Positions 11,018 to 28,618 of a DNA stretch of 28,850 nucleotides are shown here, piece by piece. This DNA is from an uncultured Rhodothermales bacterium (GTDB lineage: Bacteria; Bacteroidota; Rhodothermia; Rhodothermales; VXPQ01). Under the pieces are notes generated by a model that saw only the letters and a list, made by a program, of their open reading frames with translations, did no database searches and had not been told where the DNA came from. The translations under genes were made by a program, and so were the position numbers. The DNA lies in assembly GCA_964487555.1 (NCBI GenBank), contig CAZART010000026.1, positions 16,144 through 44,993 of the forward strand. Reading direction: 5' to 3'. Every line of letters starts with the position of its first letter. Position 1 is the first letter of the stretch.

Positions 11018-11128
11018 CGTCTGCCCCATCAGCGTTGCCGTTCCGACGGTCTTTTCTCCGATAGTCCGATAGAAAGCGTGGCTCCCGACTGCCGCGCGCA
11101 CCCCCAACCTGCCATACCGGTATCCAAC

Positions 11129-15800: not shown

Positions 15801-16164
15801 GGAGCAGGTGGCAGGTCAGCTGCTCCGCAGCATCTCGCATCGAATCGCCGTTCCTCGGCACCTACCTGCGATCACGCTGTCGATGGAAAGGCGCCGGAAC
15901 GTACTGATGACCTTCAAAGAAGCGCTGCATAATGCAGCGCGGCATGCGGACGCCGAGTCCATCGGAATCGACATCCGCGTAGACGATTCCACGTTTTCGT
16001 TCCAGGTCCGAGATGACGGCCGCGGATTTGAGGAAGGCAGCGTCCGACCGGGCTACGGCATGAAGACCATGCGCCGGCGAACCGACGAGATCGGCGGACG
16101 CCTGTACGTCGAAAGCGCGCCAGGCCTGGGAACGCGGATCTCTCTGGAGGTCGATCTCACCTGA
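12898..16164 (+). CDS. Sensor histidine kinase with large periplasmic two-component-regulator propeller (Reg_prop) array, Y_Y_Y domain, TM helix, HisKA_3 and HATPase_c
   Basis: Signal peptide MRTLATLIPFALGITVAAAQG. Many Reg_prop-like units (F-W(I/V)(A/G)T--GL-R-D-----F--Y). Y_Y_Y-like region KYAYRLEPYDDDWHDADGSPTARYTNLDAGNYVFRVKAANADGVWNE. TM helix WWRTWWFRAFMGAILVGIVAHG. HisKA_3 H-box RIADDLHDDVGSRMSSI. ATPase boxes EALHNAARHA, VRDDGRGF, GYGMKTMRRR and APGLGTRISLEV. Confidence 0.92.
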   Translation: MRTLATLIPFALGITVAAAQGLTIDSQPYIAEHFTMDDGLPTQRTHGIVQDRFGFLWIATNNGLVRYDGRSFETFNPEPDDPHSLGGRWVYHVDEDSTGNLWVATAGSLNLVDRAAGHFVRYPHHPESPDSAYGIGGDLIRWTGPAYGGERWIAYLGGLDRLNPATGIVARYRQDPDDPQGFPFIIMRTALFVDRAGTLWIGGARAVYRYRRASDTFERYPLPVDDELDLACDVTRLYEAPSEPGILWIGTDADEPPCRGGGLVRLDTDSGTFAHYAHSPEDQRSLPDPFVTSFLEDGRGDLWIGTKGGLARLERETGAFTRFRPDPDQPSGARNKIRSIIEDADGSLIVGVEHTSDAPDELAGIVLFTPGTGAFTPLSFPLRTQSSGEGPSIAYFHKDRTGVIWVGTTNDGLLKLNRSYFRYYRPSGWKTDGRGDDRVADVIVDREGMLWLAMSGSGLVHFDPSRETSVRYRHDPHDTRSLASDNLRTVFQDEAGTIWVGTEGSILDRLEPERNAFTHYRVDAVNPPLYGGANIKAIYEDARGALWVGTLGAGLYRLDRDSGIFTRFHVDPAQEPGGLNWIQELWEDRDGALWAGTLGGLGRFDRDAGRFTPYADETHFTYINAIYEDWKGRLWLGTSHGGLYLFDREQNSYHPYFTERDGLPIDHVCAILEDDAGWLWISTLRGLARFNPDMRTSRTYDLSDGLQSNVFWRGSAAKGPDGRLYFGGERGLYVVDPTHLADESHAPPVVLTTMLIGGERRLGGVLQRPLSGDVRLRHDDNDLSFEFVALHFANSNKNKYAYRLEPYDDDWHDADGSPTARYTNLDAGNYVFRVKAANADGVWNEEGAVIRLVILPPWWRTWWFRAFMGAILVGIVAHGHRVRLRHQLAIEHTRTRIADDLHDDVGSRMSSIALMLEHGTQRQRLGDDERAYLQLAAKEIRQVVSDLRDTVWVIDSSHDGLADLVVRMEQVAGQLLRSISHRIAVPRHLPAITLSMERRRNVLMTFKEALHNAARHADAESIGIDIRVDDSTFSFQVRDDGRGFEEGSVRPGYGMKTMRRRTDEIGGRLYVESAPGLGTRISLEVDLT

Positions 16165-16171
16165 TATCAGA

Positions 16172-16858
16172 ATGCGATCCAACAACGCCATGGCCCCCCA
16201 TTCGAATTCGTTGGTCGACGCTCCGCTTCGCATATGGCTCGTCGACGATGACAGCCGGTTTAGCGAGATGTTATCGTTGATCTTGAACGACGTCCCCGAC
16301 ATCATCTGCGATGCCGCTTTTGAGGATTGCGAATCGGCCCTCCGGCGGCTGAGCCAGAACGCCGATGGCGGACTGCCGGGCCTCGTGCTCATGGACGTCA
16401 ACCTTCCTGGAATGAATGGTCTCTCGTGCACGGCGCAGATACACGCACGTTTGCCGGAGGTCCCTATTCTCATGCTGACGATCCGTGACGACGCCGACAC
16501 CATCTATGCGGCTCTACGCGCGGGCGCCTCCGGATACCTCGTGAAAGAGTCGCCGATCGATCAGATCGTGGCAGCCATCCGAGAAGCGCGGAGTGGAGGT
16601 ATGCTGATGCCGGGACCTGTCGCCCGCAAGATGCTATCGTTCTTCGCGCAGGCCTCGTCTTCCGACTACGGCCTCTCTATTCGGGAAATGCAGGTTCTGG
16701 AGAAGATGGTAGAGGGGCTGTCGCAGAAGGAGATCGCTTCGGCACTCTTCGTGAGTCTCTCGACGGTAAACACGCACATCCAGAATATCTACGCGAAACT
16801 CCACGTGCACTCCAGTTCGGCCGCGGTTGCCAAGGCGCTTAAGGAGCGAATCATCTGA
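16172..16858 (+). CDS. NarL/LuxR-family response regulator (REC + LuxR-type HTH)
   Basis: Starts 8 nt after the kinase stop. REC motifs are IWLVDDD, LVLMDVNLPGMNG (phospho-acceptor Asp region), ILMLT and GASGYLVK. LuxR HTH: LSIREMQVLEKMVEGLSQKEIASALFVSLSTVNTHIQNIYAKLHV. Confidence 0.92.
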   Translation: MRSNNAMAPHSNSLVDAPLRIWLVDDDSRFSEMLSLILNDVPDIICDAAFEDCESALRRLSQNADGGLPGLVLMDVNLPGMNGLSCTAQIHARLPEVPILMLTIRDDADTIYAALRAGASGYLVKESPIDQIVAAIREARSGGMLMPGPVARKMLSFFAQASSSDYGLSIREMQVLEKMVEGLSQKEIASALFVSLSTVNTHIQNIYAKLHVHSSSAAVAKALKERII

Positions 16859-17025: not shown

Positions 17026-20000
17026 CTATCTCACCCGCACGATCGAGAGCGTCCGGATGGTGCCACCCGAGCGCATTCGCACCAGATACGTTCCACTCCC
17101 GACCGGCACACCCGCTTCGCTCCGGCCGTTCCACACGGCCGCATGGTAACCCGCCGATGCATTCCCTTCGACCAGCCGTGCCACACGCCTGCCCAGCAGG
17201 TCGTAGACCTCCAGGAGCACGGCCGACGCTTCCGGCACTCCGTACCGGAGCGTCGTTGCATGCTCAAAGGGGTTCGGGAAGTTCTGAAACAACTCGAAAC
17301 TCGACGGTATCTCCGGTCCCGCGTCCCGACCCGGAGTAACCAACAGCGTCAGACGACGCTCCTGCCCGTCCCCGCCGGAGGCGACCGCATAGTGCGGCTG
17401 CGCCCGCAGATCCTGCCGCACGCCCGCCACCTCGTCGACAAGCCACACGCCATACAACGACGGCACGGTCTTGACGCCGTCGAATTGCAGGTCTACCCGG
17501 CCGGAGCGACGGGTTTGAACGGCAACGGTCCAACGCTCTTCGTCCTCAGGCACCGGGCGTACGTCGGCGCTGTACCGCACGGCGTTCGTCTTCCACTCGG
17601 CGTGCGGGAACGACACCCGAACGAACTCCCCGATGCCCGGGGGCTCCGGGCGATCCAGTTCATCCAGGCCTACAGAGGCGTTGGAGGAAACCGCAGCGAA
17701 CGTATGCGCATCGCCGGCCTCACCCTGACTGGCCAGAATCCGGATGAACCATTCAAAGACGCCCTCTCGCCCGGCGCCTTGCACCGATTCACCTCGGCCT
17801 GCGGCCGAGACGTCCGGGTTGATCAGCAGCTCGTCGCTTCCGGGAGAAAAGACGGCATAGCCGGCGAAGGGCATGAGCGCGTCGTGAAGAGAACTCCAAC
17901 TCCCCTCGAACTTCAATAATTCAATGGCCCGGCCGGATGTCGCGCGGACGTTCGCCACGGGAACCGGGAAACTGAAGGGACTGCTCACGAGGTTCCATCC
18001 GTCGTGCAACGGGATTCGGAACGGCTCATCGGTGCGAAGCGACAGGCCTGCACCCGTCGTCAGTTCTTTTCCGGCCTCTTTCACGAGCAGCCAGTAGGCG
18101 TCGCCGGGTCTCAATTCCTGATAGACGCCCACTAATTCGGTGATCTGATCATCATCGAAGAAGCGCCATTTTGTTCTGTCGTACGGGCCGAGATCGTCTT
18201 CCAATACAGCACGCACGTTCTTCTCGTCGAGGTCGAGCGGAACGGAAATCAATCGGTAGGCCGCGGCTTCAGTGCCGGCATGCAACGGGTGGCGCAATCC
18301 GTCCGGCACGTAGAACGGCACAGAGATCGTACCCACCTCGGGCAGACTAGTCGAATGAAATGAGTTTGCAGCCGAGATGTAATACTCAACGCCGCGTTCA
18401 TGGCCCCAAATCGTCTCACTGAATTTGCCGGGAGGCCGCTCGACCAGCGGCTTGCTGCTGAAGGTCGTATCACCGCCGCGACGGTAGAAAAGGGATGCCT
18501 GGAGTCCGTCGCCGCTGCGATCATGGATGCTGGCCGTGACGACTACGTCCTGGTCCGGCGTGGGCACTGCAGGATCCACTCCGGATTCCTCAATGGTCAC
18601 ACCGAGGAGCTCTCGAAGCGACGTCAGCCAGATCGCGCCGCGGTCGATGCCTCCCGCTCGGGTCAAGGGAGCCCCGATGGCGACGTCGATGACGCCGTCC
18701 TCCACGTCGCCGAGTCCGGCAAGCGCTCGGCCGAAGCCTGTGGGGGTCGGGGCGTCGAAGCTGGTGAGGTGTTGTGTGTCCTTGACGCTGTCCTCCGCAG
18801 TTAGAAAGAGGAGAGTCATACCCTCTTGGCCACCTTTGCTCGCACCGACGATCAGTTCCCAGTTGCCATCTCCGTCGATGTCACCCAGCCCGGCCAGAGC
18901 TCCGGTGAGATCATCCACGTTGATGTCGTCCGGACGTATGGCGGTCGAGCGTGCCGTCGAGCCGTCTGCTTCGATCTGAAGGATGTGCAACCCGGCATCG
19001 CCGTCGGCGCCCACGGCGAGGCCGCGCCCGCCGGCCCGCGGGCCCAGATCTGCAAGCGCGCGGCCGAATTGAGGCGTTTCGGGATCCGAAAGGACCCTGT
19101 CCGCGGTGACGGTTCCATTCTCGTTCAGGTTCAGCAGCCATACGGCCCCGCGGTCTGGTCCCTGTTCGTCGTCGAACGGCGCACCCACGGCCAGATTGGG
19201 GCGGCCGTCGCCGGACAGGTCTCCGAGCGAGGCGACGGCAGCCCCAAATTCGTCGCCTTCGCTGACACTGATGCCTAACGTGGACGCATCAATCTTCTCG
19301 TGACTGCGCACGACACCGTCGTCGTCTAGGTGCAATATCCACACGGCACCCCGGCCGTCGTCACCCGGTGCGCCGACGGCCAGCGTCACGCCGTCGGCAC
19401 CACGCTCACCGACCTGAGCCAGCGCCGCACCGAAGCGGTCATTGTCGTTGAGCGTGCCGCCGAAAGCGCTCGAGGAGGCGCTGATTCGCTGATGGCGACG
19501 TATCGTGCCGTCGGGTTTGAGAAACAGGATCCATACGGCGCCTCGGACCGATCCGCCGCCGTCGTCGTCGGGAGCTCCAACGGCGAGGTCTTCGACGCCG
19601 TCCCCATCGAGATCGCCGAGGGACGCGAGCGCAGCGCCGAAATGGTCGAAATCGTCCGGTTGGAAAAGAAAATCTGCGGAGCGGACTTGATGGGTGCGTT
19701 TGACGGTGCCGTCTTCCCTGAGAAAAAGAAACCACAAGGCGCCGTTGCTGTCTTCACGATCGTTCCCAGTACCTGCCGCGACGATATCTGAAGAGACGAC
19801 GAGCGTCTCGACGGTCTCGGGATCGTTGTCCGTGTCGCCCAGCGCCGTGAGCAGGCGGCCGAAATAATCGTTTGCCAGGAGAGTTCCGTCAAAACCGCCT
19901 TCGTTCGACGCAATCTTGTGTTCGCGCTTGACGGTGCCGTTCAGGTTCATGAACAGGATCCACACTTCACCATGGAACCTCTCGCGCATCGCGGCCGGAC

Positions 20001-21183
20001 CATGGGCCATCCGGGTCCTCACGGCCGGCGCGGATACGGCCAGCTCAGGGACGTCGTCGCCATCGAGGTCGTTCAGCGCGGCTACATCCCACCCGAAATT
20101 CGTGCTATCCCGAAGCATGCCCTGAAACCCGCCGTCCGTGCGGCCGATCTTCTGATGCTCACTGACCGTACCGTCTCGGTTCATGAACAAGACCCATACG
20201 ACGCCATTCCAGCAGTTGGGCGTCTCGCAGCCATCGTCGTTATACCTTCCGCTCCCGACCAGTTCCGGCACACCGTCCCCATCGAGATCCAGGCTCGTGA
20301 TGCCCGGTCTGCCGAAGCCCTCCCTCGGACCCTCACCTATGAATCCACCCAGCCGGCATGTAAGATCGTCGTCGGAATCATGAAAATTACAGATGTGCTG
20401 AAAATCCGCCACTCCGTCGTCGTCGTCGAGAAAAGTAATGGTGATTCCGTCCCCGAACGACGTGTAGTCGGGATTCCGATCACCGTTGATATCCATGGCG
20501 CGGTCTCCTTCCGTAGCGCGACAGTGGTTCCAGTCTATGCCTTGCGGATGGGGCTCGTACTCACACACCGTCATCGTATCTCTGGCTGTGCCGTCGCGGT
20601 TGAGGTACAAGATCTTTGTATGGGATTTGTGGACGGAGGCATCAGGCAATGCTATAGCGCCTATCAGATCGGGTACGTCGTCGCCATCGACGTATCCCAG
20701 GGGTGTGACTCCGCCGACCGGTTCTAAACTCCCGTCGCCGCGCTTCAGCGCAATTTGCTGATAGCTGAGCACCGTACCGTCGGTGTGGATGAATAGGGTC
20801 CACACCGTCTGACCCGCCGCGAATGCCAGATCGTTGACGCCGTTCCCGTCCACGTCGCCTGCATTCACGAGCGTATGAAATTGTCCTTCAAGATCACCGC
20901 TGAATCTAATTCCGTTTTCGGCCCTTCCGCGCGGGTCTCCTTCGGTGGCACTGATTTTATGCGGCGTGGTGAGCTGAGCCTCCGCGACGACCGGCACCAT
21001 CAGGCCGAGCACGAGCGCGAGCGTTGCGCTACGAAATGCTGTCCGGAGCGCCGTACGGAATGCGGGTCGACGCGCGGTACGATGCACCCTTTGAAGCGGT
21101 ACGCGAAACGTATTACGAAGCCCGGTCTGGAATGCCTTTCGGCTCCCGGACATCACCTTCATTGGTCTGTATGCATCAGACAT
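17026..21183 (-). CDS. Very large FG-GAP (integrin-alpha-like/VCBS-type) repeat protein with T9SS C-terminal sorting domain
   Basis: More than ten units of the form FG-ALA-LGD(L/V)(D/N)GDG--DLAVGAP-DD-----GAVW(I/L)LFL--DGTV. Examples are FGAALASLGDLDGDGVEDLAVGAPDDDGGGSVRGAVWILFLKPDGTI and FGAAVASLGDLSGDGRPNLAVGAPFDDEQGPDRGAVWLL. A non-repeat beta-rich middle region follows. The T9SS CTD is FELFQNFPNPFEHATTLRYGVPEASAVLLEVYDLLGRRVARLV...GTYLVRMRSGGTIRTLSIVRVR. I prefer the ATG at 21183 (GGGAGGA 5 nt upstream) over the GTG at 21216. The signal peptide core is ATLALVLGLMVPVVAEAQ, after a long Arg-rich n-region. Confidence 0.9.
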   Translation of the reverse strand: MSDAYRPMKVMSGSRKAFQTGLRNTFRVPLQRVHRTARRPAFRTALRTAFRSATLALVLGLMVPVVAEAQLTTPHKISATEGDPRGRAENGIRFSGDLEGQFHTLVNAGDVDGNGVNDLAFAAGQTVWTLFIHTDGTVLSYQQIALKRGDGSLEPVGGVTPLGYVDGDDVPDLIGAIALPDASVHKSHTKILYLNRDGTARDTMTVCEYEPHPQGIDWNHCRATEGDRAMDINGDRNPDYTSFGDGITITFLDDDDGVADFQHICNFHDSDDDLTCRLGGFIGEGPREGFGRPGITSLDLDGDGVPELVGSGRYNDDGCETPNCWNGVVWVLFMNRDGTVSEHQKIGRTDGGFQGMLRDSTNFGWDVAALNDLDGDDVPELAVSAPAVRTRMAHGPAAMRERFHGEVWILFMNLNGTVKREHKIASNEGGFDGTLLANDYFGRLLTALGDTDNDPETVETLVVSSDIVAAGTGNDREDSNGALWFLFLREDGTVKRTHQVRSADFLFQPDDFDHFGAALASLGDLDGDGVEDLAVGAPDDDGGGSVRGAVWILFLKPDGTIRRHQRISASSSAFGGTLNDNDRFGAALAQVGERGADGVTLAVGAPGDDGRGAVWILHLDDDGVVRSHEKIDASTLGISVSEGDEFGAAVASLGDLSGDGRPNLAVGAPFDDEQGPDRGAVWLLNLNENGTVTADRVLSDPETPQFGRALADLGPRAGGRGLAVGADGDAGLHILQIEADGSTARSTAIRPDDINVDDLTGALAGLGDIDGDGNWELIVGASKGGQEGMTLLFLTAEDSVKDTQHLTSFDAPTPTGFGRALAGLGDVEDGVIDVAIGAPLTRAGGIDRGAIWLTSLRELLGVTIEESGVDPAVPTPDQDVVVTASIHDRSGDGLQASLFYRRGGDTTFSSKPLVERPPGKFSETIWGHERGVEYYISAANSFHSTSLPEVGTISVPFYVPDGLRHPLHAGTEAAAYRLISVPLDLDEKNVRAVLEDDLGPYDRTKWRFFDDDQITELVGVYQELRPGDAYWLLVKEAGKELTTGAGLSLRTDEPFRIPLHDGWNLVSSPFSFPVPVANVRATSGRAIELLKFEGSWSSLHDALMPFAGYAVFSPGSDELLINPDVSAAGRGESVQGAGREGVFEWFIRILASQGEAGDAHTFAAVSSNASVGLDELDRPEPPGIGEFVRVSFPHAEWKTNAVRYSADVRPVPEDEERWTVAVQTRRSGRVDLQFDGVKTVPSLYGVWLVDEVAGVRQDLRAQPHYAVASGGDGQERRLTLLVTPGRDAGPEIPSSFELFQNFPNPFEHATTLRYGVPEASAVLLEVYDLLGRRVARLVEGNASAGYHAAVWNGRSEAGVPVGSGTYLVRMRSGGTIRTLSIVRVR

Positions 21184-21252
21184 TGCTATCCTCCCATCTT
21201 TGGGAATCGATTCCACGCTCGCGAAAACTCAATCCGGCAGTCCCTTCTCGAG

Positions 21253-21771
21253 TCACTGTTCGGGATACACCGGCGGCGCCGGCAGATCCGGTACCTCTTC
21301 GTTTCGCAAAAGAAACGGTAGGGCCGCGACGCTGCCGACGACCACGGTGCGGCCGGCCCAATGGTACCAGGCATTGCCGCGCCACAGCCACGTGTACCAC
21401 CGCGGTTTGAGGTCGCTGACGAGGTCGGTGAACACGCGGGGATCGGTCTGTGGATCGGGCTTGAAGCGGCCGTCCGCTTTCAGCAACATCCGCACAGACC
21501 GGCGGGCCTCCTGGAGCGAGTCCCGGGCAACGTAGGAGAGCGCCATGAGCCGATATGCGCTCACGCGCTGGTCTTTCGGAGTGAACCCGTTCGGCAGGCA
21601 CGGCCGGAGGAGTCCGATCGTGCTCGCGAAACGGCCTACGTCGTACGTGTCGGCGGCCTCCGACAAGGTGGCGGCGTCGCACCCGGCCTGTGCCGCCCCG
21701 TTTTGAGCCGGGACCAGAAGTCCCAGCGCGAGAAGCAACGCGATGGAATGATGGCGAATGATCTTGGTCAT
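21253..21771 (-). CDS. Small TPR-like protein with signal peptide and C-terminal membrane anchor
   Basis: The ATG at 21771 overlaps the TGA of the upstream gene (ATGA), with a purine-rich GAGGAAGAGGAA just upstream. Signal peptide MTKIIRHHSIALLLALGLLVPAQNGAAQA. One TPR-like helical hairpin: AYRLMALSYVARDSLQEARRSVRMLLKADGRFKPD. Hydrophobic helix WYHWAGRTVVVGSVAALPFLL near the C-terminus, then a short Pro-rich tail. Family not recognised with certainty. Confidence 0.7.
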   Translation of the reverse strand: MTKIIRHHSIALLLALGLLVPAQNGAAQAGCDAATLSEAADTYDVGRFASTIGLLRPCLPNGFTPKDQRVSAYRLMALSYVARDSLQEARRSVRMLLKADGRFKPDPQTDPRVFTDLVSDLKPRWYTWLWRGNAWYHWAGRTVVVGSVAALPFLLRNEEVPDLPAPPVYPEQ

Positions 21772-24563
21772 TGTTCCTCTTCCTCTGTGCCCCTCGACGG
21801 CTTGCCCCGGTCGGCAGCCGTTAGCGAGCAAGGTTGATAGTCGCGTTCATAGGGGAAGTCATCACCGATGAATTGAGTCCACTCTTCCGGGCGCAGCTCG
21901 CGCCCTTTTACCGACGTGCAGACGGCCTCGGCAAGGCGCCCCGGCTTGACGTTCCAAAGGCGGATGGTGCGGTCGGCGCCCGCCGACGCCAGTCGCGTTC
22001 CATCGGGGCTGAACGCCAGCGACCAAACCCACGAGGCGTGATCCTGAAGGAGAATCGGACGCGTATCCAGCCGCCCGACATCCCATACCTGCACGCTGTG
22101 GTCGGCACTGCCGGACGCGAGGGTCTCACCATCGCTGCTAAACGCCACGGCGTGAACCGGGCCTTCGTGACCCCGCAGCGTCCGCGCAACGTCCGGCACG
22201 GCGTCCGAGGCCTTCAACCGCCATAACCTGACCAGCAGGCTGTCACCGCCCGATGCCAGAAGCGTGCCGTCGGGGCTAAACACCAGACCGTGCAGGATGC
22301 CTTGCCCCGCGTCCCACGTGGTGGGCCGGCCTTCGGGTTCCTGCCAGGCCCAGAGCTGCAGACGGCCGTTCTCACCGCCGATGGCGAGCAACCGTCCGTC
22401 CGGGCTGAAGGAAAGCGAGCGGATCCGCGTACGGACGTCCAGCTCGACCGAATCGCGATCGGCACCCATGCTGCGGACGACGACGGTATGGTCCGCTCCT
22501 GCGGAGGCCAGGTGCGAGCCGTCGGGGGAGAAGGCCAGCGTCCAGACGCCGCTCTCGTGGCGTCCGATCGTCTCCGGCACCGGTGTTTCCGCGTCCAGGC
22601 CGCTCCAGATCCGCACGGTGAGATCGTCGCCGGCCGAGGCCAGCATCGTTCCATCGGGGCTGAAGGCCACGCTCCGCACGGCGGCTCGGTGACCCTTCAA
22701 CTGCTTCCGTTCGCCGCCGGTACCGTTCGGCCACAGGGTTACGCCGCCGGCGTCGTCTCCGGCGGCGACCCAGTGGCCATCGGGACCGTACGCCACGGAA
22801 CGCACCTGAGCCTCCGCCGCGAAAACCTCTGGACCACCTGCGTCGTCGTCGGCATCGAGGGCGTTGAGGCTCTGAAGCAGGGCGTCATAGACGGGATCCA
22901 GAAACTCCCCTTCGCCTTCCCGGCTGAACAAATAGGCCTGCCGGGCCAGCAGCGCTCCCAGTTCGGCATCGCCGAGTCGGAGTTGGCGGGTGGCCGTGCT
23001 GGCCAGAGCGATGGTAATGGTCTCGAGCCGCGCCGCCTGGGTCTCGTCGAGACGCGTTTCCGCCACCGAGCGAAGTGAGTCGGAGACGTGGACTTCGGCC
23101 GCCAGCTGCGTGTTGAGCGAGTCGGAAACGGCAAACTGGGCGGCGAGCTGGGCGTTGACCGCCTCCGTCTCGAGCCGCAGGGCATCGGAGACCGCAAACT
23201 CGGCCGCCAGCTGCGTGTTGATCGCTTCCGTTCCGGCTCGAAGAGAGTCTGAAATCCGAACCTGGTTGGACAACTGCACGTTGGCCGCTTGCGCCGCTGC
23301 GTGGAGGGAGTCGGTGATCTGGATCTGGTCCGACAACTGCTGGTTCAGCGCTTCTTGAACCGCGCTCTGCCGTTCTGCCTGGCCCGCCCGCTGGGTTTGC
23401 AGTACGAAGAGGCCGAGCAGAACCACCGACATGAAGAGGGCCGCCACGAGGCCGAGCACGGCGGGAGGCACGCGCCGGATCCAATGCTCCGGCCACTGGT
23501 CCTTGAGCCATGAGCGGTTGAAGACCGCCGCATAGATCGGGTTGCGGACTTCCAACCGGCCGTTTTGTCGTCCGACGATGCCGGAGAGCTTGAGGTGCGT
23601 GATGGGGGCCGATTGTACGTCGTCGGGTACGCGCCGCCCCTGTAGGATGGCCTGGTACGTGGCCAGAACCGCGCTCGGATCCGCCGCCCGGCGCGTCAAC
23701 ATGTCGTGGACGAAGCGTAGATTGCTGTCGTGCTCGCTCTGCTGCCCGAGGAACGTCGCCGTCACGGCGCGGTCGACGTCCACGTCGGTTGACCCGATGT
23801 GCTGCTGCTCGGCGATGACCTGACAGAGCCGCTGCGTCAGGTACGGATGGCCGCCGGTCCAGCGTACGACGTCACGAAGTTGCTGCCGCGCTTCGTCCGC
23901 AGGCAGGTCGAATCCGCCGGCCAGCGGCATCGCTTCGTCTTCAGTGAAGTAGTCCAGGTCTATACGTCGACCGACGTTAAAAGGGGTGCGGCGAGGGTCG
24001 CCGATCAGGTCGTTCGGCGTGGCCACACCGATCAGGACGAATGAGAGCCGCTTGAAGGCAGGAACAGTGGATCGGGCGTTATGGACGTATCGGATCGCGG
24101 CAAAGAAATCATCGGTGAACGGCAGACTCAGCGTGCTGTCGATTTCGTCGATAAAGATCACTACCGGTTCGGCGATCTCTTCCAGCAGGATTTCTTGCAA
24201 AAACTGCGTTAACCGCTGCGTGAAGCCAAGTTGCTCGTGGGTCTTCCACCAGGTAAAAACGTCGGCCTTCAGCCGGAGGCGGCGGCTGATCGCCATGATG
24301 AGACCGAAGTACCACGCCTCATCCTCGACCTGGACGCCCATCTGACTCAGATCTATGATTACGGAGCGCACGCCTTCGTCGGCCAGCCGTTCGGCCGTTC
24401 GGATCATGAGGCTGGACTTGCCCATCTGCCGAGCCGTCAACACGAAGGCGAACGTTTGGCTGCGGCAGAGTTGGAGAAGCTCGTCGTCGACCTCGCGCGG
24501 GATGTAGAGACCGCTGCCGGCCTGCACGGTCCCGCCTATGGTAAAGATGTTTTCTTTAGCCAT
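21768..24563 (-). CDS. AAA-like (PF14516/AAA_35-like, STAND-style) P-loop NTPase, followed by one TM helix, a 21-residue-repeat coiled coil and a 7-blade WD40 propeller
   Basis: The N-terminal roughly 355 aa follow the pattern I know from cyanobacterial AAA-like domain proteins. That pattern is FTIGGTVQAGSGLYIPREVDDELLQ...FAFVLTARQMGKSSL (Walker A), VVIFIDEIDS (Walker B), RRTPFNVGRRIDL and WTGGHPYLTQRLCQ. The remaining elements are annotated as separate sub-features. The ATG at 24563 lies inside the last codons of the upstream gene (an 8-nt overlap). Confidence 0.9.
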   Translation of the reverse strand: MAKENIFTIGGTVQAGSGLYIPREVDDELLQLCRSQTFAFVLTARQMGKSSLMIRTAERLADEGVRSVIIDLSQMGVQVEDEAWYFGLIMAISRRLRLKADVFTWWKTHEQLGFTQRLTQFLQEILLEEIAEPVVIFIDEIDSTLSLPFTDDFFAAIRYVHNARSTVPAFKRLSFVLIGVATPNDLIGDPRRTPFNVGRRIDLDYFTEDEAMPLAGGFDLPADEARQQLRDVVRWTGGHPYLTQRLCQVIAEQQHIGSTDVDVDRAVTATFLGQQSEHDSNLRFVHDMLTRRAADPSAVLATYQAILQGRRVPDDVQSAPITHLKLSGIVGRQNGRLEVRNPIYAAVFNRSWLKDQWPEHWIRRVPPAVLGLVAALFMSVVLLGLFVLQTQRAGQAERQSAVQEALNQQLSDQIQITDSLHAAAQAANVQLSNQVRISDSLRAGTEAINTQLAAEFAVSDALRLETEAVNAQLAAQFAVSDSLNTQLAAEVHVSDSLRSVAETRLDETQAARLETITIALASTATRQLRLGDAELGALLARQAYLFSREGEGEFLDPVYDALLQSLNALDADDDAGGPEVFAAEAQVRSVAYGPDGHWVAAGDDAGGVTLWPNGTGGERKQLKGHRAAVRSVAFSPDGTMLASAGDDLTVRIWSGLDAETPVPETIGRHESGVWTLAFSPDGSHLASAGADHTVVVRSMGADRDSVELDVRTRIRSLSFSPDGRLLAIGGENGRLQLWAWQEPEGRPTTWDAGQGILHGLVFSPDGTLLASGGDSLLVRLWRLKASDAVPDVARTLRGHEGPVHAVAFSSDGETLASGSADHSVQVWDVGRLDTRPILLQDHASWVWSLAFSPDGTRLASAGADRTIRLWNVKPGRLAEAVCTSVKGRELRPEEWTQFIGDDFPYERDYQPCSLTAADRGKPSRGTEEEEQ
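21939..22817 (-). other. WD40 beta-propeller, 7 blades (sub-feature of CDS 21768..24563)
   Basis: Seven units. (1) VRSVAYGPDGHWVAAGDDAGGVTLW. (2) GHRAAVRSVAFSPDGTMLASAGDDLTVRIW. (3) RHESGVWTLAFSPDGSHLASAGADHTVVVR. (4) IRSLSFSPDGRLLAIGGENGRLQLW. (5) ILHGLVFSPDGTLLASGGDSLLVRLW. (6) GHEGPVHAVAFSSDGETLASGSADHSVQVW. (7) DHASWVWSLAFSPDGTRLASAGADRTIRLW. Confidence 0.9.
23052..23345 (-). repeat. In-frame degenerate tandem repeat, 63-nt / 21-aa unit (five units of 21, 21, 21, 14 and 21 aa) encoding a probable coiled coil
   Basis: Protein residues 407-504 of CDS 21768..24563. The units are NQQLSDQIQITDSLHAAAQAA, NVQLSNQVRISDSLRAGTEAI, NTQLAAEFAVSDALRLETEAV, NAQLAAQFAVSDSL and NTQLAAEVHVSDSLRSVAETR. 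All unit lengths are multiples of 7. The periodicity is also visible in the DNA (recurring gccagctgcgtgtt...gagtcgga). Confidence 0.75.
23400..23471 (-). other. Predicted single transmembrane helix (sub-feature of CDS 21768..24563)
   Basis: Residues 365-388, VPPAVLGLVAALFMSVVLLGLFVL, form an uninterrupted 24-residue hydrophobic stretch. It is preceded by HWIRR (positive-inside on the NTPase side) and followed by QTQRAGQAERQ. Confidence 0.7.
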
Positions 24564-27204
24564 CGAAGTGATCCCGGAAGTACTCGGCGTAGAGTCTGCA
24601 TCGGGGTATCACGGCCCGCCCGTCCCGAAGTACGAGCCCGGCGCCCTGCAGCCTCCAGAAGACCTCGTCGTCATCGCACCTCTGGTGCCGGATGACCTCT
24701 CGCAGACCCGCTATCAGGTCGTCGTGTCCGTGGAGCCGGAACAGGTGGTAGCGCAGGTGATCACCGAAGGGACCGCGGTCGCGTGTGGCGGAAGCAAGCA
24801 GCTCGGAGATCGACATCTGCCCGCCGGCGACGAGGTAAAACGCTTTGCGCGTCAAATACGGGTGCCCGCCCAGCATCGCCATCATTTGCCCGATCTCATC
24901 CGCTGAGCACGGCGCGCCGTGTCGATCGCCGAGTTCCTCCACTTGCCCCGGTGTGAAGTCCTTCATCTCGATGATTTCCCCGACGTTAAACGGCGATTGA
25001 TTCAGGTTTTCGATCAGCTGGTAGGGTTCGGTGGAGGTGACGAGGGCCAGGTCCAGCCGCTTCCATATTCGGGCGGTGGCGCGGTCGTTGTGCCAGCTGC
25101 GCAGCATCCCGAAGAAATCGGAGCGGAAGCCCGTATCGAAGACGCGTTCAACCTCGTCCATGGCCAGCACCAGTGGCCGGTCGATGGCTCCCAGGATACA
25201 GTCTTCGACATAGAGCGTACAGCACTGGCTATTGCCCAGCGGCCACTGCCAGTATTCCTCCACTCTATTCTCCAGCTTCAACTTGAAGGTGAGCCAGACG
25301 CAGAACTGTTGGAAGAACGTGTCGGCGTCGTTTAGAGCCGACTGATTGAACAGTTGAAAATCGAGGAAAACGACCTGCTTTCCGGCTTTGGCAGCCGCGT
25401 TCATCGTGCGTACGAGCAGGGAACTCTTGCCCATCTGGCGTGGGCCTTTGATGGTAAGGGTAACTCCTCGCTGCTTGATGGCCCCTTGGGCTACGTCGTC
25501 TTGCGGTCGGTGCACGTAGAAGGCGGAGTGCGGGTCCATCGTACCCTCCGGCGTCTCGAGGTGCGGTTGCGCCGCCGCCAGCGGTTCCGGGAACGTCGGC
25601 GGAGCCTGCTCTTCGGTCGGACGGGCACGGGCACGCCACGACGCGCTGAGATCGCCACCGGCAATGGCGCGCGTGAGCTGCTCGATCAACCTGGAAGTAT
25701 CCGCTTCGCCGCCCCAGAAGGCCCAGTTGAGATCGTTGAGATAGGCGCTGAGGGGGTAGACAAACGGCTGCGTATAGTCCAGACGCACGGGGAGGAGGGC
25801 CGGTCGCCCACCCCGTTCCTCCGCCAGGCGGTGTGCCGTCTGGATCTCCGCGAGCACCATTTCGCTGTGGATGGATCGGGCCGACAGCAGGACGATTAGA
25901 AAATCGGACTGTGCCAATTCGGCTTCAATCTGCGCGATCCAGCGCGCGCCTATCGGCAGCATCGTATCGATGAAAACGTCGTGGTCGCTGCTCAGGGCGT
26001 CGTAGATCGCGCCGGCGACCTCATCGTCGGGCTCTCCGCCTCTCTTGTAGCTGATGAAGATGCGCGGCCGCTGGAGGTGGTTGGTACGGTCCAGGGAAGG
26101 CGCATCTACAGGTGTCGTATCCGGAAGCGGTGTGGCGGCGCCCCGTTCGAGGAGACGGCGCCGTACACGGTGTAGATCGGCCAGCAGCAGGGACGCCGTC
26201 CGATAGCGGTTGGTCCGCTGCTTCTCAAGACACTTGTAAACGACGGCCCCAAGATCCGGCGGCAGATCGCCGTTGAGCAGCGCCATCGGTAGGGGATCCT
26301 CGTTCAGCACCTGATAGATGGTGGCCTGCTCGGTCCCTTCGCGAAACGGCCTCTTTCCAGTGATCATTTCGTACATGACGACGCCCAGCGACCACAAATC
26401 CGTCCGCTGGTCGACCGCCTCGCCGCGCGCCTGCTCCGGACTCATGTAGGCCGCCGTCCCCAGCGCCGTACCTGCCCGCGTCAGGCTTACATCTTGCACT
26501 TTTGCGATCCCGAAATCGACGAGTCTAACGCGTGCCTGTTCGGTCACGATGACGTTGCTCGGCTTGATGTCCCGGTGCAGGATTCCGCCCGTATGTGCCG
26601 CCTTCAGCCCATCGGCCATCTGTATCGCGTGGTCGAGGGCCTCTTCCAGCGGAATCGCGCCGCGCGCGATCCTCGCTTTGAGCGTCTCGCCGGAATAGTA
26701 GGCCATTGCGATGAAGAGCCGCCCGTCATCCGTCTCGTCGACGTCGTAGACGGTGCAGATGTTGGGGTGGTCCAGCGCGGAGGCCGCCTTGGCCTCGTGC
26801 ATGAAGCGCACCTTGGCCTGCTCGTCCAGATTCAGGTGGGGCGAGAGAAACTTAAGCGCCACACTGCGATCGAGCCTCGTGTCGCGAGCTTTGTAGACGA
26901 CGCCCATGCCACCCCGGCCGAGCTGTTCCTGAACCTGATACCGGGAAATGTTCAGTCCGGTTAGGTCATGTAGCCCCGGCTGAGCCGCTGAGGGAGCCGC
27001 CAAAAGGAATCGTTCGAGGACGTTGCGGACGCCGCCGCCCCGGTCCTCGAAGGCGCCGAGCAGGGCTTCCACTTCGTAACGGATGTCGTCGTCAGGGCTT
27101 TCTCGGTCGAGGTAGGCGTTACGTACGTCGGGCTCGAGGTCGGCGGCTTCATCAAAGAGGCGCCGGATCTGCTCGGCGCGCTGGTCTGAGACGGGAAGGC
27201 TCAT
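24556..27204 (-). CDS. Multidomain Ser/Thr protein kinase, TIR and AAA-like (PF14516-like, STAND-style) NTPase fusion protein
   Basis: 882 aa. The N-terminal helical leader RAEQIRRLFDEAADLEPDVRNAYLDRESPDDDIRYEVEALLGAF is typical of kinases partnered with TIGR02999/ECF43 sigma factors. The kinase, TIR and NTPase domains are annotated as sub-features. Its stop lies 8 nt inside the next gene. Confidence 0.9.
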   Translation of the reverse strand: MSLPVSDQRAEQIRRLFDEAADLEPDVRNAYLDRESPDDDIRYEVEALLGAFEDRGGGVRNVLERFLLAAPSAAQPGLHDLTGLNISRYQVQEQLGRGGMGVVYKARDTRLDRSVALKFLSPHLNLDEQAKVRFMHEAKAASALDHPNICTVYDVDETDDGRLFIAMAYYSGETLKARIARGAIPLEEALDHAIQMADGLKAAHTGGILHRDIKPSNVIVTEQARVRLVDFGIAKVQDVSLTRAGTALGTAAYMSPEQARGEAVDQRTDLWSLGVVMYEMITGKRPFREGTEQATIYQVLNEDPLPMALLNGDLPPDLGAVVYKCLEKQRTNRYRTASLLLADLHRVRRRLLERGAATPLPDTTPVDAPSLDRTNHLQRPRIFISYKRGGEPDDEVAGAIYDALSSDHDVFIDTMLPIGARWIAQIEAELAQSDFLIVLLSARSIHSEMVLAEIQTAHRLAEERGGRPALLPVRLDYTQPFVYPLSAYLNDLNWAFWGGEADTSRLIEQLTRAIAGGDLSASWRARARPTEEQAPPTFPEPLAAAQPHLETPEGTMDPHSAFYVHRPQDDVAQGAIKQRGVTLTIKGPRQMGKSSLLVRTMNAAAKAGKQVVFLDFQLFNQSALNDADTFFQQFCVWLTFKLKLENRVEEYWQWPLGNSQCCTLYVEDCILGAIDRPLVLAMDEVERVFDTGFRSDFFGMLRSWHNDRATARIWKRLDLALVTSTEPYQLIENLNQSPFNVGEIIEMKDFTPGQVEELGDRHGAPCSADEIGQMMAMLGGHPYLTRKAFYLVAGGQMSISELLASATRDRGPFGDHLRYHLFRLHGHDDLIAGLREVIRHQRCDDDEVFWRLQGAGLVLRDGRAVIPRCRLYAEYFRDHFDG
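24565..25539 (-). other. AAA-like P-loop NTPase module paralogous to the N-terminus of CDS 21768..24563 (sub-feature of CDS 24556..27204)
   Basis: Walker A is GPRQMGKS (nt 25423..25446, checked on the DNA) and Walker B is LVLAMDEVE. QSPFNVGEIIEM corresponds to RTPFNVGRRIDL in the neighbouring protein. LGGHPYLTRKAF corresponds to TGGHPYLTQRLC. Confidence 0.8.
25771..26067 (-). other. TIR domain (TIR_2/PF13676-like; sub-feature of CDS 24556..27204)
   Basis: RIFISYKRGGEPDDEVAGAIYDALSSDHDVFIDTMLPIGARWIAQIEAELAQSDFLIVLLSARSIHSEMVLAEIQTA. This shows the F(I/V)SY start, the D--L--G--W---I—— S-(hydrophobic)4-LS pattern, and a Glu (E453, codon 25846..25848) at the position of the catalytic Glu of NAD-cleaving TIR domains. 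Confidence 0.8.
26170..26940 (-). other. Hanks-type Ser/Thr kinase catalytic domain (sub-feature of CDS 24556..27204)
   Basis: All catalytic signatures are present. These are the Gly-rich loop LGRGGMGVVY, VALK (Lys118), HRDIKPSNV (HRD at nt 26569..26577, checked on the DNA), DFGIAK and GTAAYMSPEQ. Confidence 0.9.
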
Positions 27205-27357
27205 AATACGGCCTGGTATGATCGCTCATCCTGGAGGATCTATCGTGGAGAAGGTCGTCCCTGACGTCTTCAATGGCAAAGAAAGAGATCCGTGCCTCCT
27301 CTATCATGGACGAAGCCTTTCTGCTGCCTCTCATCTAAATAGGCCGCAAAACGACAC

Positions 27358-27390
27358 AGATTTTTCATCGGCTCGAAAAAAGTATATTTC
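27358..27390 (+). promoter_or_regulatory. Candidate promoter in an AT-rich island upstream of the ECF sigma gene
   Basis: The only strongly AT-rich stretch of the 269-bp divergent intergenic region is gatttttcatcggctcgaaaaaagtatatttcc. It contains TTTTCA (27362..27367), a 15-nt spacer and TATATT (27383..27388). TAtaTTTc also resembles the Bacteroidota -7 motif TAnnTTTG. This rests on pattern only, and the spacing is not ideal. Confidence 0.25.
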
Positions 27391-27473
27391 CTGGGGAGAG
27401 CAGGTCGCATGGAGGGCGTCCAGGTGCTCTCCGGATCGGCGCGCACAGCACGTAACGGTCTCTCACAAATCCG

Positions 27474-28049
27474 ATGCCCATGCAGGAAGACGTTACACAG
27501 ATGCTCGTGCAGTGGAGCGATGGCGACGATGATGCCCTCGAGCGGCTCCTGCCGCTACTCTACGACGAGCTAAAGCGCCTGGCCGGTGCGCGTATGCGAG
27601 GCGAGCGCTCCGATCATACGTTGAACACGACCGCCCTCGTTCACGAAGCCTATCTAAAGCTCATAGACGTCGACCGTGTACAGTGGACAGACCGGGCGCA
27701 CTTTCTGGCCATGGCCTCGCGACAGATGCGTCGGATCCTTATTGACTACGCGCATCGGCGGAATGCCCGAAAACGTGGGGGCGGCGTGGAACACGTAGCG
27801 CTGGAAGAGGAGCGGTATATTCCGGAGGACTATGCCGATACGCTGCTCGAGTTGGACGATGCCCTGCAACGCTTCGAGAAGTCGTATCCCCGACAGGCGG
27901 AGGCCGTTGAATTGCACTATTTCGGCGGCCTGACGTTGGAGGAGTCCGGCGCGGTGCTCGGCGTTTCGGCGCCTACGATCATGCGAGATCTGCGATTCGC
28001 CCACTCGTGGCTGGCGCGCGACTGGGATCCGGATTCTCCCGATGCTTAG
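27474..28049 (+). CDS. ECF sigma factor, TIGR02999 / ECF43-like (Ser/Thr-kinase-associated type)
   Basis: Family-typical N-terminus DVTQMLVQWSDGDDDALERLLPLLYDELKRLAGARMRGERSDHTLNTTALVHEAYLKL. Also W-DRAHFLAMASRQMRRILIDYAHRRNARKRGGG. Region 4: VELHYFGGLTLEESGAVLGVSAPTIMRDLRFAHSWL. It is divergent from the kinase fusion gene. Confidence 0.9.
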   Translation: MPMQEDVTQMLVQWSDGDDDALERLLPLLYDELKRLAGARMRGERSDHTLNTTALVHEAYLKLIDVDRVQWTDRAHFLAMASRQMRRILIDYAHRRNARKRGGGVEHVALEEERYIPEDYADTLLELDDALQRFEKSYPRQAEAVELHYFGGLTLEESGAVLGVSAPTIMRDLRFAHSWLARDWDPDSPDA

Positions 28050-28618
28050 AGGCTAATTGTTCCACCCCACTCCTTCGCGAACCACGCCCGGGCAAATCGC
28101 AAGTCGCGCTCCACGGTCGTTAGCGATACGCTCAGCGCTTCGGCAGTTTCTTCATTCGTCAAGCCGCCGAAGTATCGGTGCTCGACGGCCTCCGCCTGCC
28201 GAGGATGCGTCTCCTCGAAGCGCTTAAGAGCGTCGTCGAGTTCCAGCAGCGTCTCAGCGTGTTCGTCCGGAATCAGGCGCTCCTCGTCGAGTGTTTCCCG
28301 CTGCGCGCCTCCGCCTCGCTTCTGAGCCTTTCGCTGGAGCGCATAATTGACGAGGACACGCCGCATCACCTTCGAGGCCATCGCAAAGAAATGGCCGCGG
28401 TTTTCCCATTGAATCTGGTTGATGTCGGCCAGCCTCAGGTACGCTTCGTGAACGAGGCCCGTCGTGTTTAGCGTGTGGCCCGGCCGTTCCTCTCGCAACC
28501 GTGCGTGAGCGAGTTTGCGCAGCTGCTCGTAGAGGACGGGCACGATCCGATCGAGCGCCTCGCGATCGCCCTCCCCGTAGGCGTTCAGGAGCCTGGTCAC
28601 GTCGGCCTGTGAGAGCAT
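28046..28618 (-). CDS. ECF sigma factor, TIGR02999 / ECF43-like, paralog of 27474..28049
   Basis: DVTRLLNAYGEGDREALDRIVPVLYEQLRKLAHARLREERPGHTLNTTGLVHEAYLRL...HFFAMASKVMRRVLVNYALQRKAQKRGGG...VEHRYFGGLTNEETAEALSVSLTTVERDLRFARAWF. My gap-free hand alignment with the neighbour gives 107 identical positions out of 190. The stop codon TAA (complement of 28046..28048) overlaps the neighbour's TAG (28047..28049). Confidence 0.9.
   Translation of the reverse strand: MLSQADVTRLLNAYGEGDREALDRIVPVLYEQLRKLAHARLREERPGHTLNTTGLVHEAYLRLADINQIQWENRGHFFAMASKVMRRVLVNYALQRKAQKRGGGAQRETLDEERLIPDEHAETLLELDDALKRFEETHPRQAEAVEHRYFGGLTNEETAEALSVSLTTVERDLRFARAWFAKEWGGTISL

Follow-up and report, generated by a model that had tools for sequence, protein, structure and literature searches.

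The stretch of DNA analyzed here, which we call the window, is 28,850 nucleotides long and comes from an uncultured Rhodothermales bacterium (GenBank assembly GCA_964487555.1, contig CAZART010000026.1, positions 16,144 to 44,993 of the forward strand). It contains a gene, named here gene A, whose single polypeptide combines a Hanks-type Ser/Thr kinase, a TIR domain and a P-loop NTPase of the AAA_35 family. Gene A overlaps a second AAA_35 gene (gene B), gene B overlaps a gene for a small exported protein (gene C), and two sigma factor genes of the extracytoplasmic function (ECF) type lie beyond the other end of gene A (Table 1). We found that genes A and B represent one wiring variant of a large, uncharacterized, NLR-like two-gene family, and that in this lineage the pair may act as the receptor of a sigma factor kinase.

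Table 1. Features at the gene A/gene B locus, in coordinates of the window.
Feature	Position	Strand	Details	Evidence
Gene A	24556..27204	-	Leader + Hanks kinase + TIR + AAA_35 NTPase, 882 aa	Open reading frame, Pfam, 19 homologous clusters
Gene A, helical N-terminal leader	26950..27204	-	Residues 1-85; type found in ECF43-partner kinases	Collinear with PknS / PDB 9EED; pattern in 16 homologs
Gene A, Ser/Thr kinase domain	26170..26949	-	Residues 86-345; K118 codon 26851-26853; D212 codon 26569-26571	Pfam, PknB match, motifs
Gene A, TIR domain	25660..26070	-	Residues 379-515; E453 codon 25846-25848; M449 at Trp position of WxxxE	TIR_2, AlphaFold2, Foldseek
Gene A, AAA_35 NTPase	24559..25551	-	Residues 552-882; nucleotide-binding + helical + winged-helix domains; Walker A K593 codon 25426-25428; Walker B D683/E684	PF14516, AlphaFold2, Foldseek
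Gene B	21768..24563	-	AAA_35 (residues 11-349); one transmembrane helix (residues 369-387, nt 23403-23459); coiled coil; WD40 (residues ~581-890, nt 21894-22823)	Pfam, hydropathy
Gene C, small exported protein	21253..21771	-	Signal peptide, ~110-aa domain, C-terminal transmembrane segment	Conserved after B in 7/7 clade loci
FG-GAP repeat protein	17026..21216	-	1396 aa; FlgD_ig / type IX secretion system (T9SS)-type C-terminus; directly downstream of C	Pfam; FG-GAP after C in 7/7 loci
ECF sigma factor	27474..28049	+	PF07638, TIGR02999; TLNTTA motif; divergent from gene A	
Second, paralogous ECF sigma factor	28046..28618	-	PF07638, TIGR02999; TLNTTG motif; same strand as gene A	
Divergent intergenic region, gene A / (+) sigma gene	27205..27473		Presumed promoters, none identified	

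The reading frame of gene A is open for 882 codons from its ATG without interruption, and this start is backed by a homolog with 70% identity (P0002) that has the same MSLPVSD... beginning. Pfam recognizes Pkinase at residues 89-339 (E = 4.7e-49), TIR_2 at residues 382-502 (E = 2e-18) and AAA_35 (PF14516) at residues 552-877 (E = 3.8e-111), and we found no hydrophobic, potentially transmembrane segment in the protein. A preliminary description of this DNA, made from the sequence alone, had proposed a chain of four parts (leader, kinase, TIR and P-loop NTPase). All four are confirmed, and the motifs that it had listed (GRGGMG, VALK, HRD, DFG, SPE, SEMVLAEI and Walker A/B) all lie where it had placed them. 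The same architecture is present in one identical protein and in 19 further 90%-identity clusters that are 48-70% identical to gene A, drawn from NCBI, ENA, JGI and Logan assemblies; the named ones come from metagenome-assembled genomes labeled Rhodothermales or 'Bacteroidetes'. Because these assemblies are independent, we conclude that the fusion is genuine and subject to selection. Among six gene A orthologs the domains are 50-61% identical whereas the linkers are only 17-32% identical, so the domains are under purifying selection. The poorly conserved linkers on both sides of the TIR domain are rich in Ser and Thr. Long open reading frames also run antisense to genes A and B (22290-23078, 25354-25899 and 26494-26964, all on the + strand); the 60-68% G+C content most likely accounts for them.

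By treating gene A on its own, the preliminary description overlooked the partner to which it is translationally coupled, a second AAA_35 protein with a transmembrane helix and a WD40 domain. The start of gene B overlaps the stop of gene A by 8 nt (ATGGCTAA). The AAA_35 domains of the two proteins are 26% identical and share the same conserved motifs, with Walker A and Walker B intact in both. The transmembrane helix of gene B is 61% identical among 6 orthologs. Its coiled coil is repetitive, and there are no tandem DNA repeats under it. In the ortholog comparison the WD40 region has 41% identity, versus 62% for the rest of the protein, a difference that does not clearly support a WD40 domain hypervariable like that of an immune sensor. 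The ATG of gene C in turn overlaps the stop codon of gene B by 4 nt (ATGA). Gene C has a weak, sub-threshold resemblance to the NCBIfam TssQ family of type VI secretion system lipoproteins (28.6 bits, cutoff 65). The order of gene A, gene B, small exported protein and FG-GAP protein is the same in all seven loci that encode leader-bearing homologs.

The two sigma factor genes of the window are 56% identical and lie tail to tail, with a 4-nt overlap at their stop codons; in related loci there is one sigma gene, co-directional with the kinase gene. The gene cluster encodes no anti-sigma Pfam domain. Five aligned sigma factors share an invariant TLNTT[AG]LVHEAYL in region 2.2, and the TLNTT[AG] motif agrees with the QTTA consensus of ECF43 sigma factors, whose Thr is the activating phosphorylation site in EcfP and EcfK (PMC13147305). 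A sigma gene adjoins the gene A homolog in 6 of the 7 leader-bearing loci but in neither of the two leaderless kinase fusions whose loci were read (0/2), from which we conclude that leader and sigma factor go together. At the seventh leader-bearing locus (L096/L097, protein P0008), an upstream protein of 513-744 aa with no Pfam match stands in the place of the sigma factor, and the small protein and the FG-GAP gene are kept. Sigma-70-like promoters and terminators were predicted only at the level expected from shuffled sequence.

The kinase domain of gene A has all its catalytic motifs in order: GRGGMG (residues 96-101), VALK (115-118, with K118), the Glu of HEAK (E137), HRD (210-212, with D212), DFG (230-232) and SPE (255-257). 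They are intact in 25 of the 25 kinase-fused members of the family, where the sole variation is HQD or HLD for HRD in two proteins. Its best solved relatives are PknB (E = 3.7e-58), StkP and PknA (E = 1e-58 to 1e-48), and by its motifs the kinase is apparently active. Among PADLOC 2.0 models it matches PD-T4-6 (1e-94) and mad6 (7.5e-70), in both cases only across the generic kinase domain (residues ~85-350).

Residues 11-346 of gene A, that is, leader and kinase together, match PDB entry 9EED as one stretch (E = 3e-32). The protein in this entry is PknS of Xanthomonas citri, represented by its cytoplasmic part; PknS phosphorylates the ECF43 sigma factor EcfK directly and carries an 83-residue segment, predicted to form 3-4 helices, ahead of its kinase domain (PMC13147305). 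Taken alone, the leader (residues 11-52) is collinear with this N-terminal segment of PknS at a level that is not significant (E = 0.8). A leader pattern, xxLFxxAxxLxxxxRxAFLxxxxxxDxxLRxEVxxLLxA, can be written for gene A and recurs in 16 homologs. The leader had been described at the outset as typical of ECF43-partner kinases, and the collinearity with PknS and the joint match to 9EED bear this out. In one homolog (P0006, 944 aa), a leader of the ECF43 type occurs twice in tandem ahead of the kinase domain.

Kinases from the leader-bearing clade of fusions are 45-66% identical to the gene A kinase. Stand-alone kinases from Thermoanaerobaculia are equally close to it (53-58%), whereas the kinases of Blastocatellia-type fusions (P0136, P0156 and P0228), one of which has a zinc-ribbon N-terminus, are just 36-39% identical. 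Because some fused kinases are thus more distant from gene A than unfused ones are, the sequences indicate that the TIR-AAA_35 family has captured a kinase at least twice.

A single-sequence search with the TIR segment of gene A against PDB sequences found nothing relevant, and a profile built from 31 TIR domains of the family matched Cat1 (E = 2.5e-8), a TIR-TPR protein and AbTir. In this alignment E453 of gene A (SEMVLAEI, residues 447-454) corresponds to the Glu in the NYELD motif of AbTir (E208) and in the WDELE motif of Cat1. An AlphaFold2 model of residues 375-520 has a mean predicted local distance difference test score (pLDDT) of 90.9 and puts E453 on the third helix (helix 74-89 of the model). 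The best PDB neighbors of the model in Foldseek are the NADase TIR domains of SPARTA (TIR-APAZ), SARM1, AbTir, RPS4 and RPP1 (template-modelling scores TMq 0.64-0.75, prob 1.00). Both the TIR fold and the position of its Glu, which the preliminary description had proposed, are therefore upheld. E453 is kept in 136 of 136 homologs, within an invariant motif S-x-x-S-[IV]-x-S-E-M-[VL]-x-x-E. In AbTir, E208 is required for NAD+ hydrolysis, and the Trp of the WxxxE motif (W204) binds a substrate analog and matters for the formation of cyclic ADP-ribose (cADPR) (PMC10641520). PADLOC 2.0 gave weak matches of the gene A TIR to ThsB (2e-5) and Aga_TIR (1e-4).

The NTPase of gene A has the Walker A motif GPRQMGKS (residues 587-594, with K593) and the Walker B motif LAMDE (680-684). 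Beyond PF14516, Pfam gives only sub-threshold matches to AAA_14 and AAA_22. An AAA_35 profile matched PDB sequences only at the P-loop of RecA and found no sequence-related solved structure, so the fold was modeled. In the AlphaFold2 model of residues 540-882 (pLDDT 89.3), a P-loop domain leads into a helical domain and then into a winged helix with a terminal beta-hairpin. Its closest Foldseek neighbors are the archaeal Arch_ATPases 2qen and 2fna (template-modelling score 0.65), followed by CED-4, Avs3/Avs4, ORC/Cdc6, MalT, Apaf-1 and the plant TNLs RPP1 and WRR4A. ORC/Cdc6 scores about as well as the STAND proteins do. Calling this NTPase 'STAND-like', as had been done earlier, is fair as a description of the modeled fold, given its likeness to CED-4, Avs and Apaf-1 and its canonical Walker motifs.

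The combination of kinase, TIR and NTPase had been presented as singular. It is real, but the kinase proves to be one of many variable N-terminal modules. A query consisting of the TIR and AAA_35 domains had 3037 matches at E <= 1e-20 in a word-indexed database, and an exhaustive search gave 2298 representatives at 50% identity (E <= 1e-30). Proteins of Cyanobacteria, Acidobacteria, Chloroflexota, Abditibacteriota and the Rhodothermales-like clade share this TIR-AAA_35 core at about 60% identity, and the core is nearly always C-terminal, with 0 to about 1000 variable residues ahead of it. Precomputed architecture lists for the best 120 of the 3037 matches show about 36 proteins with an N-terminal CHAT domain, 16 with a kinase, 8 with EAD7, 3 with a class III cyclase, single cases of EAD9, trypsin, FHA and a further NTPase, and nothing in about half. 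Further representatives of the family have a receiver domain, a ParA-like domain or WD40 at the N-terminus. A scan of genome contigs, which returned mostly generic kinase peptides and so is uninformative on rarity, turned up a single TIR-AAA_35 locus, from Nodosilinea, and not one fusion at full length.

An overlapping AAA_35 gene follows the TIR-AAA_35 gene in every locus that we examined, and the pair of A and B is conserved in four phyla. The C-termini of the partner (B) proteins are diverse: WD40, FGE-sulfatase, CarboxypepD_reg, a kinase or pseudokinase, DUF4062, or a coiled coil alone. Most partners have a hydrophobic helix after the AAA_35 domain (72 of 109 score >=1.7, and most others score 1.5-1.69), and Lys and Arg residues are more common on its N-terminal side (3.5 vs 2.3). 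Among the partner proteins P0233-P0352, the helix correlates with the type of C-terminal domain: it occurs with WD40, FGE-sulfatase and CarboxypepD_reg domains and is missing with kinase and DUF4062 domains. The partners that lack it include those with a C-terminal domain that would require ATP or NAD, namely P0249, P0254, the pseudokinase protein of locus L011, and P0348, which has DUF4062. It is chiefly from this distribution that we argue for a helix that spans the membrane and for a WD40 domain that would lie outside. The variant pair at L011 (1965-5799) consists of an A protein with EAD7, TIR and AAA_35 domains and a B protein in which AAA_35 is joined to a kinase-like domain, with HGN for HRD and no transmembrane helix. 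From its sequence this domain is likely a pseudokinase, and the B protein that carries it resembles an integrated decoy.

The TIR-AAA_35 cassette is mobile. It lies between two xerC genes on the Abditibacteriota plasmid AP024153.1 (L095, 7004-11390), amid transposases and an integrase in a cyanobacterium, and between pyrimidine-biosynthesis (pyr) genes in a Pyrinomonadaceae genome (L006, 8001-13731). The cassette is carried by 39 plasmids, mostly from Nostocales, and there are no relatives in 50,697 phage records. Public databases annotate these proteins only as 'AAA-like domain-containing protein' or 'TIR protein', and neither PADLOC 2.0 nor NCBIfam has a model that covers TIR-AAA_35; in PADLOC 2.0 nothing matched AAA_35 or the gene B NTPase, the only matches being to generic kinase models and, weakly, to TIR models. 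A literature search found no mention of PF14516, and 'AAA_35' matched unrelated strings only; absence from the literature searched is no proof. Nor did the literature searched, which was not exhaustive, contain a published description of the A/B pair or of the function of this architecture, in agreement with the preliminary description, which knew of no characterized protein that combines these domains. Surveys by the Aravind group cover the same effector repertoire, the EADs and another two-gene STAND system, nSTAND2, and the passages searched in them do not describe the TIR-AAA_35 family (PMC7159879, PMC8195603).

In its output the system would work like an ECF43 kinase/sigma pair, and in its input like a TIR-NLR. 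The closest functional precedents for the kinase are the ECF43 pairs PknT-EcfP of Vibrio parahaemolyticus and PknS-EcfK of X. citri. In both, a helical leader of about 85 residues precedes the Hanks domain and, as here, an adjacent ECF sigma factor (PF07638/TIGR02999) is encoded without an anti-sigma gene; the Thr-Thr of sigma region 2.2 is also shared (TLNTTA here, QTTA in the consensus). The known ECF43 kinases, however, are single-chain receptors composed of a kinase, a transmembrane segment and a periplasmic TPR or other sensor, whereas gene A has no transmembrane segment and continues into TIR and AAA_35 domains; here it is a second AAA_35 protein, gene B, that carries the transmembrane helix and the putative sensor.

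With TIR-containing STAND and NLR proteins, such as the plant TNLs RPP1 and ROQ1 and bacterial Avs and related proteins, the system shares an N-terminal TIR domain with a Glu at the catalytic position, a central P-loop NTPase with helical and winged-helix domains, and a repeat-domain sensor, and activation by oligomerization would be expected in both. Here, though, the NTPase is PF14516, structurally nearest to the Arch_ATPases 2qen and 2fna and not to NB-ARC or NACHT; the sensor sits on a separate, membrane-spanning paralogous chain instead of sharing one chain with effector and NTPase; an extra enzyme domain precedes the TIR; and Met replaces the Trp of WxxxE. The arrangement is also reminiscent of two-gene STAND systems and paired NLRs (nSTAND2, plant sensor/helper pairs, NAIP/NLRC4), in which adjacent genes carry the same NTPase, with the sensor on one chain and the effector on the other, and the two are predicted to form a hetero-oligomer. 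In nSTAND2 (Kaur et al. 2021, PMC8195603), one of the NTPases has eroded NTP-binding motifs and carries GT4 or HEPN, whereas here both NTPases have intact Walker A and B motifs and belong to another family with other effectors. The defense kinases Stk2, PD-T4-6 and MADS6 share only the Hanks domain with gene A, and none has TIR-AAA_35 or a sigma factor partner. A functional analogy, and no more, exists with the Toll/IL-1R-MyD88-IRAK-NF-kB pathway, in which a membrane receptor leads to TIR assembly, a Ser/Thr kinase and a transcription factor. That pathway has no overall homology to A and B: its TIR adaptors are non-catalytic, its kinase is recruited by death domains, and it has no NTPase.

Canonical ECF43 kinases have the order leader, kinase, transmembrane segment and sensor, while gene A lacks a transmembrane segment, and gene B supplies this segment and the putative sensor. 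For this reason we read the A/B pair as a replacement of the sensor: in the Rhodothermales-like lineage, A and B would form an NLR-like, NTP-driven two-protein receptor, and it is this receptor, instead of a transmembrane sensor, that would serve the ECF43-type sigma kinase. In our judgment this interpretation has an even chance of being correct. From the domains, folds and motifs, the coupling of the genes, the conservation of the cluster, the hydrophobic helix and the sigma factor motif, we infer the following interactions, activities, topology and regulatory output. Gene B would be the sensor, with its AAA_35 domain in the cytoplasm and its single transmembrane helix placing the coiled coil and WD40 domain outside the cytoplasmic membrane, where these may act together with protein C, which is exported and co-transcribed, and with the FG-GAP/T9SS proteins. 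A cue would switch the NTPase of B, which would then form a hetero-oligomer with the AAA_35 domain of A, and this assembly would cluster the TIR and kinase domains of A. Once clustered, the kinase would trans-autophosphorylate and then phosphorylate the neighboring ECF sigma factor or factors on a Thr of TLNTT[AG] in region 2.2, which would allow them to bind RNA polymerase and direct transcription. The TIR domain, constant throughout the family, would be either a proximity-activated second output that cleaves NAD+ or an element of the assembly.

Several observations weigh against this interpretation. The CHAT, trypsin, cyclase and EAD modules found at the N-terminus elsewhere in the family look like effectors of conflict systems, from which it follows that the ancestral role may have been immunity rather than envelope signaling. 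The sigma factors are called ECF43-like from their motif and kinase neighborhood, and other kinase-linked groups exist (ECF59-62, 217, 267 and 283). When the regions ahead of the sigma and kinase genes of 6 loci were searched for a bipartite promoter motif, none was common to more than 3 sequences, so no regulon is defined for the sigma factor. At the leader-bearing locus L096/L097 there is no sigma gene next to the homolog of gene A. The extracytoplasmic position of the WD40 domain is deduced from hydropathy only, and NLR-like proteins normally have their WD40 propellers in the cytoplasm. Finally, the TIR domain has a fixed Met (M449) in place of the Trp that NADase TIRs carry in WxxxE.

This last point also qualifies the earlier designation of the TIR domain as NADase-type. 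The Glu is there, but because an invariant Met replaces the Trp the designation is plausible, not secure, as a reading of the sequence. Weighing the Glu that is kept against the Trp that is lost, we lean slightly toward a proximity-activated NAD+ hydrolase over an element of assembly. A more ambitious proposal is that A and B form a transmembrane NLR-like receptor that, through the extracytoplasmic WD40 domain and the AAA_35 hetero-oligomer, fires two outputs together from one chain: sigma factor phosphorylation, which would lead to transcription, and NAD+ cleavage by the TIR domain, which would yield a metabolic or second-messenger signal. This proposal is tentative, and we consider it doubtful. 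If true, it would be a bacterial counterpart of the receptor-TIR-kinase-transcription factor logic of Toll/IL-1R signaling, built on PF14516, a family with thousands of uncharacterized members in multicellular bacteria.

The strongest competing explanation is that A and B are a classical abortive-infection or conflict NLR. The pair would then sense an invader, the kinase and the TIR domain would be toxic effectors, with the kinase as promiscuous as the defense kinases Stk2 and PD-T4-6 and the TIR depleting NAD+ or producing a cADPR-type signal, and the sigma factor would be an incidental or secondary neighbor. This would suit the contents of the N-terminal slot, where CHAT, trypsin, cyclase, FHA, EAD7/9, receiver and ParA-like domains are typical effectors of such systems (Kaur et al. 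2020, PMC7159879). It would likewise suit the C-termini of the B proteins, which are typical sensors (WD40, FGE-sulfatase, pseudokinase), the mobility of the cassette, with its flanking xerC genes, transposases, insertion into a pyr operon and 39 plasmids, and the strength of the PD-T4-6 match (1e-94). The PD-T4-6 match, however, spans the generic kinase domain only, and PADLOC and NCBIfam offer no model for TIR-AAA_35. Against it, too, are features of the leader-bearing clade: an ECF43-type leader together with a TLNTT[AG] sigma factor in 6/7 loci, and fixed, housekeeping-like neighbors (gene C and FG-GAP) in 7/7, with no defense island. In addition, the sensor is predicted to be outside the cytoplasm, its WD40 domain is just moderately more divergent than the rest of the protein (41% vs 62% identity), and no relatives were found in phage genomes. 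We therefore regard a conflict system as unlikely for this locus.

Less probable again is that the kinase acts inward, phosphorylating the TIR domain, the linkers, the AAA_35 domain or gene B to set a threshold or to end signaling, with the TIR domain as the sole true output. The idea goes back to the preliminary description, whose proposal of cross-regulation between kinase and TIR is speculative. The constancy of the TIR-AAA_35 core, to which the kinase is an add-on, speaks for this, as do the phospho-Thr reader (FHA) that occupies the same slot in P0148, the Ser/Thr-rich linkers of 17-32% identity that flank the TIR, and the leaderless kinase fusions that have no sigma gene nearby. It leaves unexplained the ECF43-type leader and the conserved sigma factor with its phospho-acceptor motif, and it is compatible with the receptor for a sigma kinase that we favor. 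The weakest alternative, that gene A arose from a chimeric assembly or from read-through between separate genes, or that it is decaying and no longer functional, is refuted by its uninterrupted frame, by its recurrence in independent assemblies as an identical protein and as 19 clusters at 48-70% identity, by the conservation of all its catalytic motifs and by the purifying selection evident from domains at 50-61% and linkers at 17-32% identity, and with nothing found in its favor we give it practically no weight.

Elsewhere in the window, a separate two-component system lies next to the cluster on the + strand (12898-16858), where a histidine kinase of the Reg_prop/Y_Y_Y hybrid type (1088 aa) precedes a response regulator of the LuxR family. 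Also on the + strand are an SBBP beta-propeller protein that has a T9SS sorting domain at its C-terminus (11078-12790) and a TonB-dependent receptor of the CarboxypepD_reg type (827-3658), both of them consistent with DNA from a Bacteroidota/Rhodothermota-like bacterium.

If the A/B pair is a receptor of the kind that we favor, then the 'AAA-like' PF14516 proteins found in thousands of genomes would be a two-component, NLR-like receptor family with a membrane-spanning sensor chain, which would be unusual because canonical STAND and NLR receptors are cytosolic. The switch would have been re-plugged, by capture of an ECF43-type kinase, from cell-suicide effectors such as caspase-like CHAT, trypsin and cyclase domains to transcription. 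Gene A, with three mutable active sites (K118, E453 and K593), would be a compact test case for the joint activation of a kinase and a TIR domain by NTPase-driven oligomerization. For the family as a whole, it would mean that immunity-type hardware is used for gene regulation, or the reverse.

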